IMG/VR virus record: IMGVR_UViG_3300048599_000816
Location: 1-32,544 of that record
Source of the DNA: a virus
DNA length: 32,544 nt
Strand: one strand, 5' to 3'
Shown: one piece after another, positions 11,419 through 29,969 of the stretch
How the letters are laid out: every line of letters begins with the position of its first letter
Position numbering within the stretch: position 1 is the stretch's first letter
Notes under the pieces: model-generated
What the model was told of the DNA's origin: nothing
The model's database searches: none
Seen by the model: only the letters and a program-made list of their open reading frames with translations
Translations under genes and position numbers: made by a program

Positions 11419-11817
11419 CTAACCATTTTTTGCTTCAATTAAAGAACCGGGACGAAGCATTGCAACTCTTGCTTGTTCTGTATATTGCCTGTTTTTTTCC
11501 GAGATGATTTCGTAAGCAGCTATGATTCTTTGGAAAGCTTCTTTGTCTCCACCTTTGTCTGTGTGAGCTGTCTTAACCAGTTTTGCCATTGCTGAACGAA
11601 CATCAGCTTGAGAAGCACCTTCTTTGAGACCCAGAATTTCATACGGGTCATAGACACCAAGTATAGCGATTGCTTCTTCCCTGGTCATTTTTACGTAGTC
11701 AAAAGTTTGTTTCCATTGTTCAAGACTTCCACGTTCACCTTCATAAGTGCCGTAAGCAGTTGTGGTATCAGTCCAGATATTTCTTCTTGGTTTGTTTGGA
11801 TCTCTTCTTCGTGGCAT
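11419..11817 (-). CDS. J-domain (DnaJ-like) protein, 132 aa, with HTD in place of the canonical HPD
   Basis: DPYEILGL...AS.ADVRSAMAKLVKTAHTDKGGDKEAFQRIIAAYEIIS matches the J-domain helix II-loop-helix III pattern; internal ATG (M20 of track ORF) has AAGGAGAGAACATG RBS and motif. Confidence 0.75.
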   Translation of the reverse strand: MPRRRDPNKPRRNIWTDTTTAYGTYEGERGSLEQWKQTFDYVKMTREEAIAILGVYDPYEILGLKEGASQADVRSAMAKLVKTAHTDKGGDKEAFQRIIAAYEIISEKNRQYTEQARVAMLRPGSLIEAKNG

Positions 11818-11842
11818 GTTCTCTCCTTGTTTGTTGATAGTA

Positions 11843-11875
11843 ACTATATCGAGAGAAAGATGTTTAGTTGCCAAT
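11843..11875 (-). promoter_or_regulatory. conserved promoter-like motif (near-consensus copy: TTGGCA-N17-CGATATAGTTACTATCAAC)
   Basis: Seen in sequence upstream of the J-domain gene. Confidence 0.55.
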
Positions 11876-13266: not shown

Positions 13267-14793
13267 TTAGTTGATTATTGAAGCCAATACTTTATGTTTC
13301 TTATAGTAAGAAATACGTTGTAAAGAAGACATACTCTTAAGTCGTATAATATCTTCAAAAAGATGTGCAAACTGTGCATTTCTTTCTGCATGATCAGGAG
13401 TTTCTGGATCTAAAACAGATTCAGCTTCTTCAAATTGAGATGAAGTACTTATTGTTGGACCTTCACGGAATTCTGGTGTAACTTCATAAGTATTTCTAAT
13501 ACATTCTATCAATGATTCGTTTGTGTCAAGCGCTTTTTCATTTAGCAAAGGATTTTGTATAATCCAAAAAACTGGTTTCAAAAGCGCTCTTGATACTACA
13601 ATTTTATTGTTCTTATTGATTTTTGTTCTTAGATTTTTGTTTGCTTTGATTGTTGCTCTATCGTCTTTTTGAATTCTTGCAGCTCTTCCTGCAGTTTGGA
13701 GAAACTTTACTTTATTGAGTTCTCTTAAAGGAAGAATTGCAGTAATATTAGGAAGATCAATACCTTCTGTCAAGATATCATAATGCATTATGATTGCATT
13801 TGTTTTATCAGAAAGAGCTTGAAGAGTTTTTATTGCTTTCATACGTTCGCAAGACTTTCCATTAATGAAATAGCCTCTACTTGAAAAAGCAATAACTGTA
13901 TATTCTAATGCTTTTGACCATGAATTGAATTGTTCATTTTGAACGAGATCAAGCATGTCAGATACACCAGTACAAGAAACTAAAAGTTTTGCACCAATCT
14001 TACCTTTGCTGTATTTTTGCACTTTCTTTTTGTGTTCCATAAAAGAACATTTTATAATATTATGATCAGTATGTTTACCAGATTCAAGAATGACTCTGTG
14101 AACAATAGGTGGAAGGATATCGCCAGTATCTATTGCGTGTCTTGGCGAGATTTGTGCAAGCACTTCTCCATAGAATTCTTTGTTATCCATACCTCTTGTA
14201 TTGCAACCATGAACAGCAGTTGCTGTAAAGAAATATGTTTGATTGCAGTTTGGAAGGATTTGTTCGACAGATTCGTGCTTATCATTTTTTGTAACTTCAT
14301 GTGCTTCATCAAAACAAGCAATGTCAATTTGAGTTTTTGATAGTCTCGAAATTGATTGATATGTACTTACAATTAGTAAGTGTCTGTTGAGTTTCTTTGC
14401 TTTTTCTACAGCTTTCTCAATGTCAGCAGAAGTTGTTGTGCGTGAGATGTTGCATTTCTTTGAAAAATCTCTACAATCTTCAACAAGTTTGATAACATCA
14501 TCATCGTCAACACCTTCACTACCTACTGTAAGAACATCAAATTTGAGATCAAATTCTATTGCTCTTTTGAGAAGATTTTCGATGAGTTGTTCGCAAAGAA
14601 GGAGACGGTGAGCAGCAATAAGACTTATGCCTGTTTGTTTTGTTTGTAGCGTTTCAATGATTTTGTAGACCTGGACCCAAGTTTTCCCAGATCCTGTAGG
14701 CATAATGATCTGGCCTTTGAGTTGACCAATAGTTGCATCAATAGCTTTTTTTTGGTGAACGCTCATTTCTGAGTAAAAAGATTGCAGATTCAT
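13267..14793 (-). CDS. SF2 DEAH-box helicase (motif I MPTGSGKT, II FDEAHE, III TATA, VI QTAGRAAR), ResIII/phage-helicase-like
   Basis: All core SF2 motifs read directly from translation; AAGGAGAGAGAATG RBS; motif 14818-14848. Confidence 0.9.
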   Translation of the reverse strand: MNLQSFYSEMSVHQKKAIDATIGQLKGQIIMPTGSGKTWVQVYKIIETLQTKQTGISLIAAHRLLLCEQLIENLLKRAIEFDLKFDVLTVGSEGVDDDDVIKLVEDCRDFSKKCNISRTTTSADIEKAVEKAKKLNRHLLIVSTYQSISRLSKTQIDIACFDEAHEVTKNDKHESVEQILPNCNQTYFFTATAVHGCNTRGMDNKEFYGEVLAQISPRHAIDTGDILPPIVHRVILESGKHTDHNIIKCSFMEHKKKVQKYSKGKIGAKLLVSCTGVSDMLDLVQNEQFNSWSKALEYTVIAFSSRGYFINGKSCERMKAIKTLQALSDKTNAIIMHYDILTEGIDLPNITAILPLRELNKVKFLQTAGRAARIQKDDRATIKANKNLRTKINKNNKIVVSRALLKPVFWIIQNPLLNEKALDTNESLIECIRNTYEVTPEFREGPTISTSSQFEEAESVLDPETPDHAERNAQFAHLFEDIIRLKSMSSLQRISYYKKHKVLASIIN

Positions 14794-20567: not shown

Positions 20568-21401
20568 TTAGTAAGTGAGTTGAACGAATACTTGGTCATA
20601 AGTTGCACTGAAAGTAGAAGCACCTATTTCATTCCAAGTTGTGCCATCAGTAGATCCAAAGATAGTTATACTTGATGGTTCTTTGTAGAAGAAAGTTTCC
20701 CAAGATGCGATTTTAAGTTGTGTGAATACATAAGCTGCACCCATATCAACAGTCCATGACCAGGGAAACGTACTGAATTTTATATAACCACCACTTGCTG
20801 TAGTATCACCATTAAACAAAGATGACAGTTCATTGCCAGTCTCAATAGCTGAATGTGATACTGTTGTATAACCACCAACAACTGGAGTATTCACATTAAG
20901 AAATGATGTCTCTGTAAGAATGGCTTCATTAGGACCACCAATACCAATGCTGTTTACAGTAAGTTTATAATATCGGTATCCATAATTTGTGGGTTCTACC
21001 TCGCCCAAGATCTGTACGCTTCCAGTGACTCGGGATAATGTGACTGGTACAGCTGTTACTTCACCACCAGAGATATCTGCTGTAGATGTGCCTTCATATT
21101 GAGGAGCTCCAACAGAATCATAAATAGTAACTTTAAACGATCTTCCTTTTCCGACTGGAATCTCGTCAACTCTTCCACTTATTAAGTTGGGACTTACAGA
21201 CATACGCTTTGAAATTGTTTGCATACCATGTCCTGCAACTTGCAGATCAGCAGTTTTTATGACTTCCTGTTGAGCATTAGCAGTAGAAACTTGACATGTT
21301 ACTGTACCTGTACCGTCATCATGAGACAAAACTGATAGAGGACCTTTTCCACTACAGCTTACAAGTAACATTGTTGTGATAAAAACTAGAAATGTCTTCA
21401 T
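20568..21401 (-). CDS. predicted lipoprotein (signal peptide, lipobox LVSC) with C-terminal discoidin/F5-8 type C-like (galactose-binding-like) domain
   Basis: N-terminal MKTFLVFITTMLLVSCSG; C-terminal ..GDTTASGGYIKFSTFPWSWTVDMGAAYVF.. pattern; AAAGGAGGCTTCTTTATG RBS; motif 21442-21474. Confidence 0.75.
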   Translation of the reverse strand: MKTFLVFITTMLLVSCSGKGPLSVLSHDDGTGTVTCQVSTANAQQEVIKTADLQVAGHGMQTISKRMSVSPNLISGRVDEIPVGKGRSFKVTIYDSVGAPQYEGTSTADISGGEVTAVPVTLSRVTGSVQILGEVEPTNYGYRYYKLTVNSIGIGGPNEAILTETSFLNVNTPVVGGYTTVSHSAIETGNELSSLFNGDTTASGGYIKFSTFPWSWTVDMGAAYVFTQLKIASWETFFYKEPSSITIFGSTDGTTWNEIGASTFSATYDQVFVQLTY

Positions 21402-23582: not shown

Positions 23583-24629
23583 TCATTCTTCGATAATGAA
23601 GCCTGCGCTTTTTAGAATTGCAGCACATTTTTTCACAATGCTTTTCTTATTCTTCCGGTCCATTTCTTTAAGATTTGGATCAGCATGAATGCAAAGTGCA
23701 AAGGTGATATCAAGTATTTCGCCAGCAGTAAGTTTTCCGAATTCTTCGATTGTGCTACCGGGTTCAGAAGTTTTGAGTGCTTCGATCTTCTGGAGATGCT
23801 CATTTTTAGCAGTCGTTTTGATAGAAGCTTTTTCCTGTTTCTGAGTTTTTTCTCCATTACGACGTTTACTTCCTTCAACAGCCTTTTCGATCAAGGGAAC
23901 TTTTGTTACAGAGATTTCTGTTCCTTTATTGAGGCCCATGACTTCATATCGACAAACCCGCATTTTCTGGTTGTTATAGTCATTAGGAACTGCAACAACA
24001 TCCCTCGGATTGACTTTGACTTCAATCAAAGTGCCGTAATTGCCACGAGCATAACTGAATGCAGCCACATGCAGACCTGATGAACAAGTTTCATTCCGGT
24101 TTGGATTTACCTTTTCTCTGGGCATAGTAACAACTGCACCAACATTATTGCAGAAAGTACCTGTGTGTGCATCGACCAGATCACCGTTTCCATTTTTCTT
24201 TACGCCCTTATAACCAAGAAAGCAACCATCATGAGTGATGGGCATCTTATTTGCTTCCAAGAAGAGAAACAAGTGCTCTCTGCTTTCTTTACTGGGATTC
24301 TCCTGCACATTGCGCCAGAAATTCAGAAGTGGAAGATGTGGTAAACCCTGTTTGCAGAAAGCAACAATACGATCGGTGATTGTATCATGTACTTCAACAC
24401 CGTCGATAATGACAAGACCAGAATCTTTGTCAACTTTGATTGTGCCCTGGGAGTATTCTTCGATTTTCGCCCCAACATCCAACTGTACTTTGAGTTCATC
24501 ATCAGATGCACCAGCTAAGAGCATAGCCATGACTTTGTCGTATTTTTCTGTGCCCTTTTCAAGGGTAATGGGACGACAGCCTGAAAGAGAAACTACCAGA
24601 TAATTTCCGGTAGACAACCAATTTGCCAT
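23583..24629 (-). CDS. hypothetical 348-aa protein, no motif recognised
   Basis: ORF track; CAGGAGAGAACATTATG RBS; motif near 24662. Confidence 0.85.
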   Translation of the reverse strand: MANWLSTGNYLVVSLSGCRPITLEKGTEKYDKVMAMLLAGASDDELKVQLDVGAKIEEYSQGTIKVDKDSGLVIIDGVEVHDTITDRIVAFCKQGLPHLPLLNFWRNVQENPSKESREHLFLFLEANKMPITHDGCFLGYKGVKKNGNGDLVDAHTGTFCNNVGAVVTMPREKVNPNRNETCSSGLHVAAFSYARGNYGTLIEVKVNPRDVVAVPNDYNNQKMRVCRYEVMGLNKGTEISVTKVPLIEKAVEGSKRRNGEKTQKQEKASIKTTAKNEHLQKIEALKTSEPGSTIEEFGKLTAGEILDITFALCIHADPNLKEMDRKNKKSIVKKCAAILKSAGFIIEE

Positions 24630-24674
24630 AATGTTCTCTCCTGTTGAGGTACTAAAATTATATCGTTTGTTTAT

Positions 24675-24977
24675 TTACTTTTTGCCAACTGTACAAAACT
24701 TAAGACTACCAGCAATGCACCGATAGGTAACAACCTTTTCAAGGATTTCGTATTCGCATTTGTCTAAGTCATAGAGTTTTTTGAAAGTTTCAATTGCTGT
24801 CCATTCATCTTTTGCTGTAAGCGTGCAGCATTCTTTTTTCATTTTAAGAATGTAAGTGTGCCAGTCAGCTGCAAACTTATTTAAAGCAGGAATACCGCCT
24901 ACACCAAGAGAAAGACCTTGTGTATAATAACCATCTTTCTTAATTTGTTCGATTTTTCGTTTTGTATCGGCGTTCAT
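24675..24977 (-). CDS. hypothetical 100-aa protein
   Basis: ORF track; AAGGAGAAAACATG RBS; variant motif near 25004 (TGATATAAT in place of CGATATAG). Confidence 0.8.
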   Translation of the reverse strand: MNADTKRKIEQIKKDGYYTQGLSLGVGGIPALNKFAADWHTYILKMKKECCTLTAKDEWTAIETFKKLYDLDKCEYEILEKVVTYRCIAGSLKFCTVGKK

Positions 24978-25127
24978 GTTTTCTCCTTGTTAGTTATTAT
25001 ATCACATGCTTCAGTCGAAACTACCAAAAAGATTGAGAGAGCCTTTCAAGTAAAAAACAAACGGGATCCATAATTTCCTATGGATCCCAATTTTAAGTGT
25101 GCTCTAACCTAACGAGACTGATTCAGA

Positions 25128-27302
25128 TTATATCAGTTTTTTATTAGCTATAAGGTCAGTTTCCATGAGTTCAATGTACTTTGCCATTGCAGTAACTGTA
25201 CTTGAATTAGACATTTCATAATTGTTTGCTATACTGAGAAGAGGAAACATCTTGTAAAGTTCTTTGATGTCAGCATTCAAATTTGAAAGTTGACTTACAC
25301 CAGAGTATTTGTCAATGAGGTTTGAAGGTAAAGAAACTGGTGCTGCAGGAACTGAATTCAAGACGTTTACCATGTCGCTGAATTTTTTTGATTTGAAAGG
25401 AATGTTCAAGAGCCATTTTCTTTCGCTCAAAATGCTGTGTATCTTTGCACCATCAATCATCTTTGTTATAATTGCTGGAGTCAATGCATCCAGTTTATCT
25501 TTGATGCTTCCGAAAAAGTTCACAAGTTTCGCACCACGATTTTTGTTTGCATAGATAATTCTAAAGTCTGGGAGTAAACCAGCTTTTACTGCATAACGAT
25601 ACATATTCATTTCTTCTGTGTTAGTATCAGGAAGAACGAGAATGTCATCAACAAAGCAAACTGCTGTATTTTCAGGTTTAAGTGGCGAACCACTTTCTGT
25701 TGTAACTTGAGTGTCAGTTACTTTAACATATACGTACGAACCAGGTCTTGATTGACCAGAACGTTTTGTATACTGTTGATCACTGATTGTCTGTACATAG
25801 ACTTTCAAAGTGTCAGTTGGTCGTGTAAAAGGAACTTTGGGTGTTGCACCAGATGCATCTTTCACGATTTTCATTTTATCAACTGACGAATAAAGCGAAT
25901 ATGCAATCCCAAGTTTTCCAAGCAATTCAACATCATGTAAGTATCTTCTCATTGATTTTGCAAGACCACGTTTCTCTTTGTAAGCGAGTTCACTGTATCT
26001 TAAGAACTTCGGGTCTGTAGGACGTATTGCAATGTATTCTTCATGTTTTGAAAAGATTGTTGCATCTTTCAAAGGAATGTATGATGATGTTTGATCGAAC
26101 AAGAATATAGGAGTTGTTGTAAGTTTTTTACTAACATCTGTTGTTCTTGTTCTTGAAACTTTACCACGATCAATCTCAACATTGAAGAATTGAAGTGTTT
26201 GAAAATGTTCGTCAAGTCTCAATTTCAATGACCGTTCATCAAACTTTGAAATTGTACTAAAGAAAGGATCATTGGAAGTTAGTTGCTGTTTGATGATTTT
26301 GAACCAGATATTTGAATCACGGTAATGATTGAAGATAGCAGCATCGATCCATGACTGGTTTTGTTTGTAAAGTGCTTCATAATTCGATTTGCAAAGATTA
26401 ACAAGTTCAACGAAACGTTTGTTGATTGCAGTTTTGGTTTTGTCATCGTACTGGAGAGTTTCTCTGTTTGCAGAAATTGTAAGTTCTCCAACGTTGAACT
26501 TGAAAATGATTAAAAAATCACTAACATAGTAATTTGCAAAGTTCATTGCACTCGTACTAATAGGATAGTAAATACCATCAAGCAAAAGTCCATAACCTGA
26601 GTTGAGAAGATCCTGTTCAATGATTAAGAAGTTTTCATCATCAAGAACTGGTTTAAGAACGATAGTATCGAACTTACGAGAGAAGTTTTTGTAGATGGGT
26701 CTCATTGGCCAGAAAGCAGTAGCTTTATAAACTTCACGTTCAAATTCTCTACGATCCTGTTCTTTGATCGGTATGATGATTGTTGTACCAGAATTCTCTG
26801 TTGATTCAGCAGAATCAATGCAGTAGATTTTTCCTTTACGACCCTCTTCGATTGCAGCAACATAAGTATATTTGATTCCTGCAACGATTGTTTCGATTGT
26901 GAAGTTGTCAGCATAACTGAAAGGTGTTTTTGCACCAAGACCAAAACCACCAGTGTAAGTGTCAGATTCACGTTTTGTGCTTGAGCCGTAGTTAACGAAA
27001 ACGTCAGCCATACGTTCTGGTGAGATACCAGGGCCAAAGTCCTTGAAAGAGATTGTCATGTCACTGGCAGACAAAGCAGAATGATTGATTGCGATCTCGA
27101 TAGGTACGTTGTTTTCTGATTCGCGGTTTGCATCCCTTGAATTTGATGCGATCTCTCTGCAAATTGCACCAATTGGATTTGAGTAAAGTTTAGAACGAAG
27201 TATTTCCAAAACCAGACCCATATCAGCATCTTTGATACCGAAACTGAATTCTTTAAAACTTTGGGATGTTGAAACTGTTGTTGGTTTGTTTTCAATAATC
27301 AT
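25128..27302 (-). CDS. GHKL-superfamily ATPase (Hsp90/histidine-kinase/MutL-like ATP-binding fold), 724 aa
   Basis: N-box EIASNSRDA, G1 DFGPGIS, G2 TGGFGLGAKTPF in the N-terminal ~130 aa; no Toprim EGDSA motif seen; AAGGAGAGAGAAAATG RBS; motif near 27351. Confidence 0.85.
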   Translation of the reverse strand: MIIENKPTTVSTSQSFKEFSFGIKDADMGLVLEILRSKLYSNPIGAICREIASNSRDANRESENNVPIEIAINHSALSASDMTISFKDFGPGISPERMADVFVNYGSSTKRESDTYTGGFGLGAKTPFSYADNFTIETIVAGIKYTYVAAIEEGRKGKIYCIDSAESTENSGTTIIIPIKEQDRREFEREVYKATAFWPMRPIYKNFSRKFDTIVLKPVLDDENFLIIEQDLLNSGYGLLLDGIYYPISTSAMNFANYYVSDFLIIFKFNVGELTISANRETLQYDDKTKTAINKRFVELVNLCKSNYEALYKQNQSWIDAAIFNHYRDSNIWFKIIKQQLTSNDPFFSTISKFDERSLKLRLDEHFQTLQFFNVEIDRGKVSRTRTTDVSKKLTTTPIFLFDQTSSYIPLKDATIFSKHEEYIAIRPTDPKFLRYSELAYKEKRGLAKSMRRYLHDVELLGKLGIAYSLYSSVDKMKIVKDASGATPKVPFTRPTDTLKVYVQTISDQQYTKRSGQSRPGSYVYVKVTDTQVTTESGSPLKPENTAVCFVDDILVLPDTNTEEMNMYRYAVKAGLLPDFRIIYANKNRGAKLVNFFGSIKDKLDALTPAIITKMIDGAKIHSILSERKWLLNIPFKSKKFSDMVNVLNSVPAAPVSLPSNLIDKYSGVSQLSNLNADIKELYKMFPLLSIANNYEMSNSSTVTAMAKYIELMETDLIANKKLI

Positions 27303-27374
27303 TTTCTCTCTCCTTATTAGTTAGTGTTCCTTTTCCTTACACTAACTATATCGCGAGTTATCGCGGTTTTGCCA

Positions 27375-27551
27375 TTATATTGTATCTACTTTTAGAGGCA
27401 TTATATCAATTTCAATTTCATCAAGATCAACAATTGAGTCACATTCATCCCATGAAAGAGGCCCCTTAGGAAGTTGATCTCTTTCCTGAGCTTCTTCGAC
27501 TAAAGACAAGAAAAAACTTTTGTTGCAAAAATCAGATGCACGAACTTTCAT
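27375..27551 (-). CDS. possible 58-aa acidic protein (MKVRASDFCNKSFFLSLVEEAQERDQLPKGPLSWDECDSIVDLDEIEIDIMPLKVDTI)
   Basis: GAGGCACTATG SD; hand translation; its ATG overlaps TGA of a possible upstream 44-aa basic ORF. Confidence 0.4.
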   Translation of the reverse strand: MKVRASDFCNKSFFLSLVEEAQERDQLPKGPLSWDECDSIVDLDEIEIDIMPLKVDTI

Positions 27552-27795
27552 AGTGCCTCATTTCTTCTTTTAGTTGCTTTCTTTTCACGATACTTTTTTA
27601 TGTTACGTTTATCACCTGCATCCAAAGTGTAACCTTGGGGCAAACTAGAAAGCGATTTTGGAACATTTTTTAATTTCATAATATTTTTATATCGTGATAA
27701 ATCCGATCATTGCCATTCTTTTATTTTTATACTAAAACAGAAAGAGCTCTCGGCATTTTTACCAAGAGCTCTTCTTTATCAAGGAGAGAGAGTTT

Positions 27796-28161
27796 TCAAG
27801 ATTGAGGTTTGTCAGGTTTTGTCGCTTTTTGCATGTCCATAAACATTGCCAAAGGGAAAAGCAAAAGTTTGATAGAAACAATTGCTCCAATATAAAGTCC
27901 TGTTATTACAATGACACCAATAGCATTTTCGAAAGTTCCTGATGAATATGCTGTTGGTTGTTTCCAAAAGTTATCAAAAAGCGAAACACCATTGATTACA
28001 ACTGGACGAGTACTAATAATAAAAAACAAAGGCAAGATAGAAAATATCAGAATTCTTTTGACTGTCTTGAGAAAGGGAAGAGCATTGCAAATCAATTTCT
28101 CAATTAGACCAAAAATAAAGATGAACACAATCACAAAAAAACTAACCAATATTAACGCCAT
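27796..28161 (-). CDS. small integral membrane protein, 121 aa, 3-4 predicted TM segments (holin-like size, unassigned)
   Basis: Hydrophobic stretches in translation; ATCAAGGAGGTTTTTATG strong RBS; motif near 28186. Confidence 0.8.
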   Translation of the reverse strand: MALILVSFFVIVFIFIFGLIEKLICNALPFLKTVKRILIFSILPLFFIISTRPVVINGVSLFDNFWKQPTAYSSGTFENAIGVIVITGLYIGAIVSIKLLLFPLAMFMDMQKATKPDKPQS

Positions 28162-28234: not shown

Positions 28235-29044
28235 CTATATCGAGAGATTAGTTGTTTCAGCCACCTTTTTTTGTCTTCTTTTTTGTTGTGCTATTCTCAT
28301 GTTTTTGATTTGCTCTGGCGTTCTTTTTTGACCATAAACATTGCTTAAAATCCCTTTTCTTCCATAACTTGAATTGTTTTTGCCAGATCTTTCTTTGCTA
28401 TACAAATCTTTTAATTGTTTTGCTTTTTCTTCTCCATAAAACTCTTCATAAGTCTTTCCTTTTCTTGAAGATTCTCTTCCTGTTATATCACCAAAATTGC
28501 GATTACCTAACATTGCTTGACTATGTTGTTTTCGAAGTTTGTCACCTTTTTCTTTCCCGTAGATTTGTTCGTAAGTCTTGTTTTTACGTTTTTCACTGAT
28601 TAACTTTTTTGTAGATTCTAAGACAATCTTTCCTTTTTGTGACAAACTCATTTTTTGCTTTGTTTTTTCAGAATGTTTCCTACCAGAGAAAGTATCTCCT
28701 CCATCACCCCCAGGTGTCAAATTTGTTAAAGGTCCTACAAGTCCATTTTGTACTTTTCTTCGGCCTATGTTCTTTATCAAGTCTATTTCTAGATCATTTG
28801 CTTCTTTAAGGAAAAGATTTTCTTTTACTTTGATAATTATTGGTGTTAAACCTAAACTTACAATCTTTTGAATTTTCTTTGATTTCATAGTTCCATCAAG
28901 ATAAACCAAATGATCTAAGAATCTTTTGTTTCTTCCTCTTCCAACATAAAAAGGCTCGTAATCAAATTCATACTTGTCATACTTGTATTTTTTGTTTTTT
29001 CTTGGATCAAAGTAGATGTATACATAAAAGTTGTTCTTTAACAC
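28235..29044 (-). CDS. GIY-YIG homing endonuclease with three NUMOD3-like repeats (GRKHSEKTKQKMS.. / GRESSRKGKTYEEF.. / GKNNSSYGRKG..), GTG start
   Basis: N-terminal VYIYFD...PFYVGRGRNKRFLDH matches GIY-(10-11)-YIG + R + H pattern (established family signature); RBS AAGGAGA buried in a perfect hairpin; stop codon is the TAG of a motif copy. Confidence 0.8.
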   Translation of the reverse strand: MLKNNFYVYIYFDPRKNKKYKYDKYEFDYEPFYVGRGRNKRFLDHLVYLDGTMKSKKIQKIVSLGLTPIIIKVKENLFLKEANDLEIDLIKNIGRRKVQNGLVGPLTNLTPGGDGGDTFSGRKHSEKTKQKMSLSQKGKIVLESTKKLISEKRKNKTYEQIYGKEKGDKLRKQHSQAMLGNRNFGDITGRESSRKGKTYEEFYGEEKAKQLKDLYSKERSGKNNSSYGRKGILSNVYGQKRTPEQIKNMRIAQQKRRQKKVAETTNLSI

Positions 29045-29093: not shown

Positions 29094-29969
29094 TTATTTT
29101 GCTATTTCAATGATTGCATTCCATGCATTTTCTTTTAAATAAGAAGCACCAAGAACTGAATTTGCAAGCCTTGTTTCTGCATCAGCAGAACGGTAATGAT
29201 CAATCCATTCGACGTAACCATTGTACAAGTCGTAAGCAGTTCCCTTACCAGTGCCCATACCTGCTTCATAGCATTCTTTAACTTTGTTGATAAGATTTTC
29301 CTGCCGTGTCCCGCCTTTTTCACTGAAGCATTCTTTTATGAAAGCATCAACCATCTGAGCATCAAGTACCTTCTGTGCAAGAATTCTGCATTGATCTTCG
29401 AACTTCTTAAAGTATTCCATACCAGCAGCCAGAATTCTGAGAGCTTCACCTGCTTTGATTTCACCATTTTTTGTATGGTGAACTTTGCATTTGTTATCTT
29501 TTGCCCAGCCCCATAAGCCATTTTTGCAAATTTGACGCCATGTAGTGAACTGTGCAGTAAAGGGATATGAACCATCGAAAGTATTAACAAGTTGGATTTT
29601 ACGAAAGACTTCATCGCCTTTTCTGATTTCAATTGCTCCATTGACTGTAGCTTCAAGGATAACTTTCCGACCACCATCAATGACATAAGCACCTGTGTAT
29701 CGTGCATTGTGCTGTGCACATACTGTGTCAAACCAACTGTAAGCAAATGAAGGTTGAAGTGGTGTATAACGATCACCTACAACACCGACGATTGCATGAT
29801 TATCAGAACGAACTACAGCCTTCTGATCAGGGATAATGATACCACCAGGAATTGATCCTGTTGATTTTGTTGTCATGTCAACGAGTTCAGCAGTCCAATT
29901 TGACTGTGATTTGTCGAGCGCTTCTTCAGCTGTTTTAACTCCACCCAAATCGTAATAAATTGCTTTCAT
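29094..29969 (-). CDS. DUF932-like (plasmid/phage-associated) protein, 291 aa; assignment tentative
   Basis: Overall length and pattern recollection only; AAGGAGTTGAGATG RBS; motif near 30012. Confidence 0.6.
   Translation of the reverse strand: MKAIYYDLGGVKTAEEALDKSQSNWTAELVDMTTKSTGSIPGGIIIPDQKAVVRSDNHAIVGVVGDRYTPLQPSFAYSWFDTVCAQHNARYTGAYVIDGGRKVILEATVNGAIEIRKGDEVFRKIQLVNTFDGSYPFTAQFTTWRQICKNGLWGWAKDNKCKVHHTKNGEIKAGEALRILAAGMEYFKKFEDQCRILAQKVLDAQMVDAFIKECFSEKGGTRQENLINKVKECYEAGMGTGKGTAYDLYNGYVEWIDHYRSADAETRLANSVLGASYLKENAWNAIIEIAK

Follow-up and report, generated by a model that had tools for sequence, protein, structure and literature searches.

The gene at positions 25128..27302 of the IMG/VR virus record IMGVR_UViG_3300048599_000816 raises the question of what a large GHKL (Bergerat-fold) ATPase does in a phage-like genome. 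The analysis has been carried out on positions 1 to 32,544 of this record, a stretch of 32,544 nucleotides (nt) that is called the window here. An earlier annotation made from the sequence alone, termed the original prediction, had described the gene product as a GHKL ATPase whose role was unknown. The results indicate that this gene is very probably the rIIA gene of an uncultured jumbo phage which, with an rIIB gene located 0.5 kb downstream on the same strand, constitutes a classical rIIA-rIIB module. rIIA is one of the longest-known phage genes, and the copy described here, although diverged, is an ordinary member of a common phage module directed against host defense. Its identity as rIIA is close to certain, and the role left blank before is now assigned to a homolog of phage T4 rIIA encoded just upstream of an rIIB gene that had been overlooked.

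The open reading frame (ORF) is read from the minus strand; it has an ATG start codon and specifies a protein of 724 amino acids (aa). Its ribosome-binding signal was read directly in the sequence:

25128..27302, minus strand: rIIA homolog, the gene in question, identified by phrog_612, BLASTP against T4 rIIA, hhalign and tblastn.
27310..27315, minus strand: Shine-Dalgarno sequence AAGGAG, 7 nt 5' of the rIIA ATG.

Full-length homologs with 30-91% identity were found in metagenomes, so the ORF is a genuine, conserved gene and did not arise by chance. An identical protein is on record on a metagenomic contig of 426,911 bp.

The family assignment is carried by several searches. In a PHROGs scan the protein matched phrog_612 'RIIA lysis inhibitor' (E=2.8e-65, aa 1-386), and also six more RIIA families and one RIIB family (phrog_609). 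Comparison with T4 rIIA revealed 32% identity over aa 31-300 (BLASTP, E=1e-28), and a profile of 65 homologs aligned with T4 rIIA over aa 17-316 (hhalign, E=8.4e-30). Matches to the protein were detected by tblastn in 2,912 of the 50,697 deposited phage genomes, and the best of the listed matches that bear an annotation are mostly called rIIA, as in KVP40, CC31 and RiverRider; the claim that GHKL ATPases other than topoisomerases are unusual in phages is contradicted by this count. A standard phage annotation pipeline based on PHROGs would label the gene correctly.

The three Bergerat motifs quoted in the original prediction are present in the protein: the N-box EIASNSRDA (aa 50-58, 27129..27155), the G1 motif DFGPGIS (aa 88-94, 27021..27041) and the G2 motif TGGFGLGAKTPF (aa 117-128, 26919..26954), which contains GGFGLG. 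These agree with the GHKL patterns E-x3-N-x2-D, DxGxG and GxxGxG, respectively, and the ATP-lid segment SSTKRES is encoded at 26964..26984. The three motifs and a downstream S-x-RE motif are common to T4 rIIA and the protein described here. The Pfam models HATPase_c_3 and HATPase_c scored 31.2 and 28.9 bits, respectively, above their curated thresholds of 25 and 26.4 bits. The residues E50, N54, D57, D88, G90, G92, G118, G121 and G123 are invariant in the 65 homologs, and also in a 34-sequence alignment that includes T4 rIIA; judged from this conservation, the ATP site looks functional. No transmembrane helix was predicted in the protein (maximum 19-residue Kyte-Doolittle hydropathy of 1.19). 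The overall architecture, with 724 aa (about 650-1000 in the family), an N-terminal GHKL domain, a variable C-terminal region and no transmembrane helix, is that of rIIA proteins.

An AlphaFold2 model of the protein was built on the 65 homologs, with a mean predicted local distance difference test score (pLDDT) of 84.2; confidence is low only in the first 24 aa, in the ATP lid and in a linker spanning aa ~464-497. The following regions are predicted:

26718..27230, minus strand: GHKL (Bergerat-fold) ATPase domain, aa ~25-195, with the N-box, G1 and G2 within it.
26445..26717, minus strand: second, beta-rich domain, aa ~196-286, predicted and read as transducer-like.
25131..26444, minus strand: rIIA-specific C-terminal region, aa ~287-724, fast-evolving.

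The modeled ATPase domain displays the alpha/beta sandwich of the Bergerat fold. This domain has about 170 residues but the fold alignments cover about 245-260 residues, so that they include the next domain (aa ~196-286). In the model this second domain can be overlaid on the transducer domains of MutL, GyrB/ParE and MORC, and it is read as transducer-like. The N-terminal ~285 aa are modeled with the fold of the ATPase and transducer of Hsp90, MutL, GyrB and MORC, unlike histidine kinases. The second-domain residues D242, Y246, G272, R280 and E281 are invariant in the 65 homologs, and the domain is closed by the invariant ISANRE motif (R280 and E281; 26445..26477). The gamma-phosphate of ATP is sensed by K337 in GyrB, K307 in MutL and R380 in Hsp90, and by likeness to these residues R280 is a candidate gamma-phosphate sensor. 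The GHKL likeness to solved proteins is visible only at the fold level. A PDB sequence search with the protein alone gave CpxA as best match (E=0.059), the rIIA family profile retrieved 0 PDB matches at E<=0.01, that is, no solved rIIA relative, and profile-level sequence similarity to solved members of the Hsp90/TRAP1/GRP94, MutL N-terminal domain, GyrB/ParE/topo II and MORC groups was nil.

Other GHKL proteins were also considered as identities. A diverged DNA enzyme of the GyrB-Hsp90-MutL (GHL) class, either the ATPase subunit of a topoisomerase or a MutL-like protein, is hardly credible because the specific homology is to rIIA, and the PHROGs and Pfam scans of window ORFs revealed no topoisomerase A subunit that could be its partner. 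Individual candidates of this class were rejected as follows: a topoisomerase B subunit, because the protein has no EGDS motif and no Toprim or DNA_gyraseB Pfam match, in agreement with the original statement that it is not a type II topoisomerase subunit; topo VI-B, with NCBIfam scores of 17-29 bits against cut-offs of 274-1143; and MutL, with no MutL_C or DNA_mis_repair Pfam match and only the N-terminal ~245 aa superposing on the MutL N-terminal domain. The Toprim, MutL_C, Hsp90 middle/C-terminal and CW/S5 signatures of the GHL families are all absent from the protein, which is a member of none of them.

A second proposal was an Hsp90-like chaperone working with a J-domain protein of the same phage. 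The J-domain gene does exist:

11419..11874, minus strand: J-domain ORF (Pfam DnaJ, E=1e-9, aa 76-129).

However, it is located 13 kb away from rIIA with more than 20 ORFs between them, and canonical J-domains partner Hsp70, not Hsp90, which also counts against this proposal. The NCBIfam HSP90 model gave only 34 bits against a cut-off of 455, restricted to aa 29-192; no Hsp90 middle or C-terminal domain was detected with Pfam, and the C-terminal region has no fold match in the PDB. No evidence was found for a functional tie between the J-domain gene and rIIA, and a chaperone-related role is regarded as extremely improbable. The same holds, almost to that degree, for the reading as a GHKL core, MORC-like or otherwise, of a phage-carried defense or superinfection-exclusion system unrelated to rII, which is considered very improbable. 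The specific homology to rIIA (E=2.8e-65) is far stronger than the competing Pfam match (E=2.6e-7), MORC structural scores are below those for Hsp90 and MutL, and PADLOC-DB has no match for the protein or for its two downstream neighbors. In addition, the partner gene rIIB is adjacent, and the predicted C-terminal fold matches rIIA proteins only.

The original prediction had named the finding of an ordinary GyrB/ParE or MutL homolog with a known phage role as the result that would overturn it. An ordinary homolog with a known phage role has in essence been found, although it is rIIA and neither GyrB nor MutL, and the earlier interpretation as a whole is partly supported.

The C-terminal 60% of the protein was analyzed separately. 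In the model it comprises, in this order, a helical segment, an alpha/beta domain, the low-confidence linker, a beta-rich domain and a helical bundle. Neither BLASTP nor hhalign aligned the protein to T4 rIIA beyond aa ~316, and identity to distant family members, calculated in 40-residue blocks, lies at 0.44-0.67 across the first 200 residues and has fallen to about 0.09-0.26 past residue 320. When aa 317-724 were compared by phmmer with 1.84 billion cluster representatives, only 18 proteins were retrieved, all of them of rIIA length or fragments and matched at the same position. A PDB fold search with the C-terminal ~440 aa gave no match to a solved structure. The C-terminal region modeled alone was also searched against BFVD, where it retrieved the C-terminal parts of annotated rIIA proteins; every named match at E<=0.001 was the rIIA protein of an unrelated phage, including Vibrio KVP40, Streptomyces Bmoc, Salmonella maane, Escherichia RB43, Enterobacter PF-CE2 and Serratia 2050H1 (E=8e-11 to 1e-4, 10-14% identity, 450-540 alignment columns). 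This retrieval of rIIA proteins indicates that the whole 724 aa, and not the ATPase alone, are rIIA-like. The earlier view that the ~590 aa following the ATPase motifs are unrecognizable needs to be revised in part: the sequence up to aa ~386 matches the rIIA PHROG profile and the rest is rIIA-like in predicted structure, although the C-terminal ~440 aa are indeed devoid of sequence similarity to T4 rIIA.

The second half of the module is the following gene:

23583..24629, minus strand: rIIB homolog of 348 aa (phrog_609 'RIIB lysis inhibitor', E=1.4e-61).

Aligned with T4 rIIB over 232 aa, its product is 34% identical (E=7e-44). No Pfam, NCBIfam or PADLOC match was obtained for it in the local copies of these databases, and Pfam PF26926 (Phage_T4_rIIB) was found only in the precomputed annotations of the orthologous rIIB genes of relatives. 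The conserved core of the protein (aa 4-231) corresponds in the alignment to residues 81-304 of its T4 counterpart. An N-terminal extension of ~80 aa in T4 rIIB is absent from the window protein, which has instead a C-terminal extension of ~115 aa (aa 233-348), consisting of a lysine-rich linker and a small terminal segment, that is absent from T4.

The gene neighborhood was surveyed in homologs, a check that had been recommended, and rIIA followed by rIIB on the same strand was found in 4 of the 4 loci of relatives examined:

L008 (91% identity to the window rIIA): one 98-aa ORF between rIIA and rIIB.
L004/L005 (57% identity): two small ORFs between rIIA and rIIB.
L006 (41% identity): no ORF between them, rIIA and rIIB being directly adjacent.
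L007 (~28% identity): four small ORFs between rIIA and rIIB.

The two proteins are also found fused in nature. The family phrog_609 has 1055 positions, to which the window rIIA aligns at 32-304 and the window rIIB at 830-1042, and BFVD contains a 1049-aa 'RIIA-RIIB' protein of phage RB43. These natural fusions provide independent evidence that both proteins work together. According to a review, roughly 5% of the phages in databases carry rIIB, which shares an operon with rIIA (PMC13434031).

The region between rIIA and rIIB contains an additional small gene and a hairpin, and the rII locus has four copies of the octamer GATATAAT, which resembles a -10 element:

24675..24977, minus strand: lineage-specific 100-aa ORF in the rIIA-rIIB slot, an orphan.
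25062..25089, minus strand: strong intrinsic-terminator-like hairpin with a 12-bp stem, GGGATCCATAGGAAATTATGGATCCC, followed by TTTGTTTTTT, a pattern match from a consensus scan and the sequence.
27400-27407, minus strand: GATATAAT, 97 nt upstream of rIIA.
25127-25134, minus strand: GATATAAT, over the rIIA stop codon.
24996-25003, minus strand: GATATAAT, 18 nt before the 100-aa ORF.
24657-24664, minus strand: GATATAAT, 27 nt before rIIB.

The 100-aa ORF has no PHROG, Pfam, NCBIfam, PADLOC or PDB (sequence) match, and only 4 clusters were found for it among 5.8 billion proteins. Its counterpart in L008 is 66% identical, whereas rIIA and rIIB are 91% and 92% identical, respectively, so this ORF evolves much faster than its neighbors. 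It shows no similarity to a 99-aa ORF found between rIIA and rIIB in the 57% relative. The slot itself is variable, with 0, 1, 2 or 4 small unrelated ORFs in the relatives (L008:8323-8619, L004:8320-8992, L006:7118-7179 and L007:7034-8127, compared with 24675..24977 of the window). In Acinetobacter phage 133 a gene encoding a CARD-only inhibitor adjoins rIIAB and protects the phage against a gasdermin system that RIIB triggers (PMC10312443), which suggests that the slot inserts may be accessory anti-defense genes. The octamer GATATAAT occurs 4 times in the 32.5-kb window when 1.35 copies are expected, a number reached in 4 of 100 shuffles; all 4 copies are on the minus strand inside the 2.75-kb rII locus, and 3 of them read as the extended form TGATATAAT. 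From the placement of these copies, each gene of the rII locus may have its own promoter. A hairpin similar to that located 3' of rIIA is found at 27774..27741, 3' of the upstream membrane-protein ORF.

The module was compared with that of T4. T4 rIIA (NP_049616) has 725 aa and shares with the 724-aa window protein the GHKL ATPase, the second domain, the ATP-site motifs, a SANRE/SREA-type motif and the absence of transmembrane segments; in both genomes rIIB lies downstream on the same strand. The predicted C-terminal fold resembles those of T4-like rIIA proteins (PF-CE2, RB43 and KVP40). Apart from the divergence of the C-terminal sequence past aa ~316, the differences are that rIIA and rIIB are adjacent in T4 but separated by the hairpin and the 100-aa ORF in the window, and that T4 is a 169-kb T-even phage whereas the window derives from an uncultured jumbo phage of ~427 kb. 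Jumbo or huge phages were known before to carry rIIA orthologs (Iyer et al. 2021, PMC7824862). Among the collected phage genomes, the best match is a 785-aa ORF of LR756500, an uncultured 462-kb phage, with 34.5% identity over aa 17-444; only the N-terminal ~60% of the window protein aligns to it, and a 342-aa ORF follows directly after the rIIA-like ORF of LR756500. At 57-91% identity, the closest relatives over the full length are metagenomic proteins that lack an annotation, some of them being mislabeled as proteins of archaeal metagenome-assembled genomes (MAGs). Two close full-length rIIA homologs with 56% identity (P0006 and P0012), on contigs of 74 kb and 109 kb, are deposited in NCBI under the name 'MAG: ATP-binding protein [Candidatus Nanoarchaeia archaeon]'; both contigs probably come from jumbo phages and were wrongly binned into archaeal MAGs.

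What the module does has been considered in the light of the rII literature. In T4, rIIA and rIIB are dispensable on ordinary hosts and required on cells expressing lambda RexAB (PMC8594841; bioRxiv 10.1101/2025.11.20.689424). Mutants of the family are also characterized by rapid lysis. RexAB is thought to abort infection through a RexB membrane channel that is activated by RexA and depolarizes the cell (PMC12894663; PMC11077077). Knockdown of rIIA or rIIB in T4, MM02, EdH4, SUSP1 and N4 lowered plating on lambda RexAB cells, and these five phages belong to four subfamilies, with rII proteins less than 40% identical to one another (PMC11879866). By analogy, the rIIAB pair of the window most likely protects infection from a Rex-type abortive-infection system in host prophages, with rIIA as the putative ATPase half of this counter-defense module. 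The way in which rIIAB counters RexAB has been stated to be unclear (PMC10312443). We infer that rIIA would operate as a switch or clamp of the GHL type whose conformational changes are driven by ATP. In such a switch the lid (aa ~103-121) would shut when ATP binds, sensing of the gamma-phosphate would fall to the transducer-like domain, possibly through R280, and the fast-evolving C-terminal region would set specificity for rIIB and/or for a host target.

Several points weigh against this assignment or limit it. The function is transferred by homology, with ~32% identity over the N-terminal 40% only, and none of the rIIA proteins studied by experiment resembles the C-terminal 60% in sequence. 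The BFVD matches of the C-terminal region have low global TM-scores (0.23-0.41) and high root-mean-square deviations, although low global values are expected for multi-domain proteins with differing domain orientations. The terminator-like hairpin, which starts 39 nt past the rIIA stop codon, and an unrelated ORF part rIIA from rIIB, so that the two genes may not form one simple operon here.

The sole live rival concerns the target of rIIA and not its identity. The protein could belong to the rIIA family while the module acts on a target other than Rex, the clade-specific C-terminal region setting a different specificity; the target might be another abortive-infection or membrane-targeting defense, and roles as a 'membrane integrity protector' or in lysis timing also come into question. 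The confinement of the C-terminal ~410 aa, by sequence, to the 18 cluster representatives mentioned above is in favor of this possibility, as is the high variability of the C-terminal region across the rIIA family, which has been reported as well (PMC7824862). The authors of the knockdown study explicitly pose the question of whether an adaptation to other immune systems has occurred in divergent rII systems (PMC11879866), and in HIDEN-SEQ experiments the effects of the RIIA/RIIB orthologs of phage Bas37 on clinical E. coli isolates were among the strongest of all genes (bioRxiv 10.1101/2025.11.20.689424). In the T4 record rIIA is named a 'membrane integrity protector', and its effects are connected there with various prophages. 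Nevertheless, 5 of the 5 divergent rIIAB pairs tested were needed against lambda RexAB (PMC11879866), and the rII literature found demonstrates no other target of rIIA. A non-Rex target is therefore held to be possible but unlikely. A broader proposal, in which the C-terminal ~440 aa of rIIA in this clade retarget rIIAB beyond RexAB and the slot is a hotspot of small anti-defense genes, is doubtful.

The assignment to a Rex-type counter-defense module concerns a gene whose surroundings are of phage type. A GIY-YIG homing endonuclease, a DUF932 gene (phrog_1221) and a helicase (phrog_16) were found in the window as neighbors, with no match to cellular families:

29094..29969: DUF932 gene, upstream of the endonuclease and rIIA.
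28235..29044, minus strand: GIY-YIG/NUMOD3 homing endonuclease (Pfam LEM-3_GIY-YIG and NUMOD3; phrog_314).
27796..28161, minus strand: 121-aa very hydrophobic ORF, between the DUF932 gene and rIIA.
20568..21401, minus strand: 277-aa protein with a C-terminal F5/8 type C (galactose-binding-like) domain.
13267..14793, minus strand: DEAD/ResIII superfamily-2 helicase (phrog_16).

In L008 the DUF932 gene is followed by ORFs of 110 aa and 52 aa and then by rIIA, with no endonuclease, and this absence makes the window endonuclease look like a recent mobile insertion. A homing-endonuclease remnant (mobA) is likewise located near rIIA in T4. The 57% relative has an ORF with a weak DnaJ match about 3 kb downstream of rIIB (L004:13271-13621). 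Most other ORFs of the window have no family match, and scans of the window for tRNA genes and Rfam families detected nothing. No structural genes were found among the scanned ORFs of the 32-kb window, and a megablast search with 12.5 kb against deposited phage genomes revealed no near-identical DNA, and thus no sequenced cultured close relative. The source genome is likely that of a virulent tailed phage, which is one of the features that define rIIA; all the other testable ones were found in this gene.

For this locus, the result replaces a 'hypothetical protein' or mysterious GHKL ATPase by a routine rIIA annotation with its missed rIIB partner, a change of little wider import. Its wider value is as comparative material for the 70-year-old question of the biochemistry of rIIA and rIIB. 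The alignment fixes an invariant ATP site and a second-domain motif (D242, Y246, G272 and R280-E281) from T4 to huge phages, and the models suggest that an ATPase-transducer unit in the style of GyrB, Hsp90 and MutL is joined to rIIA-specific C-terminal domains for which there is no experimental structure. The CARD-only gene of phage 133 makes the rIIA-rIIB slot worth surveying, and both the residues and the domain boundaries are now concrete enough for mutagenesis and structural work on this family.

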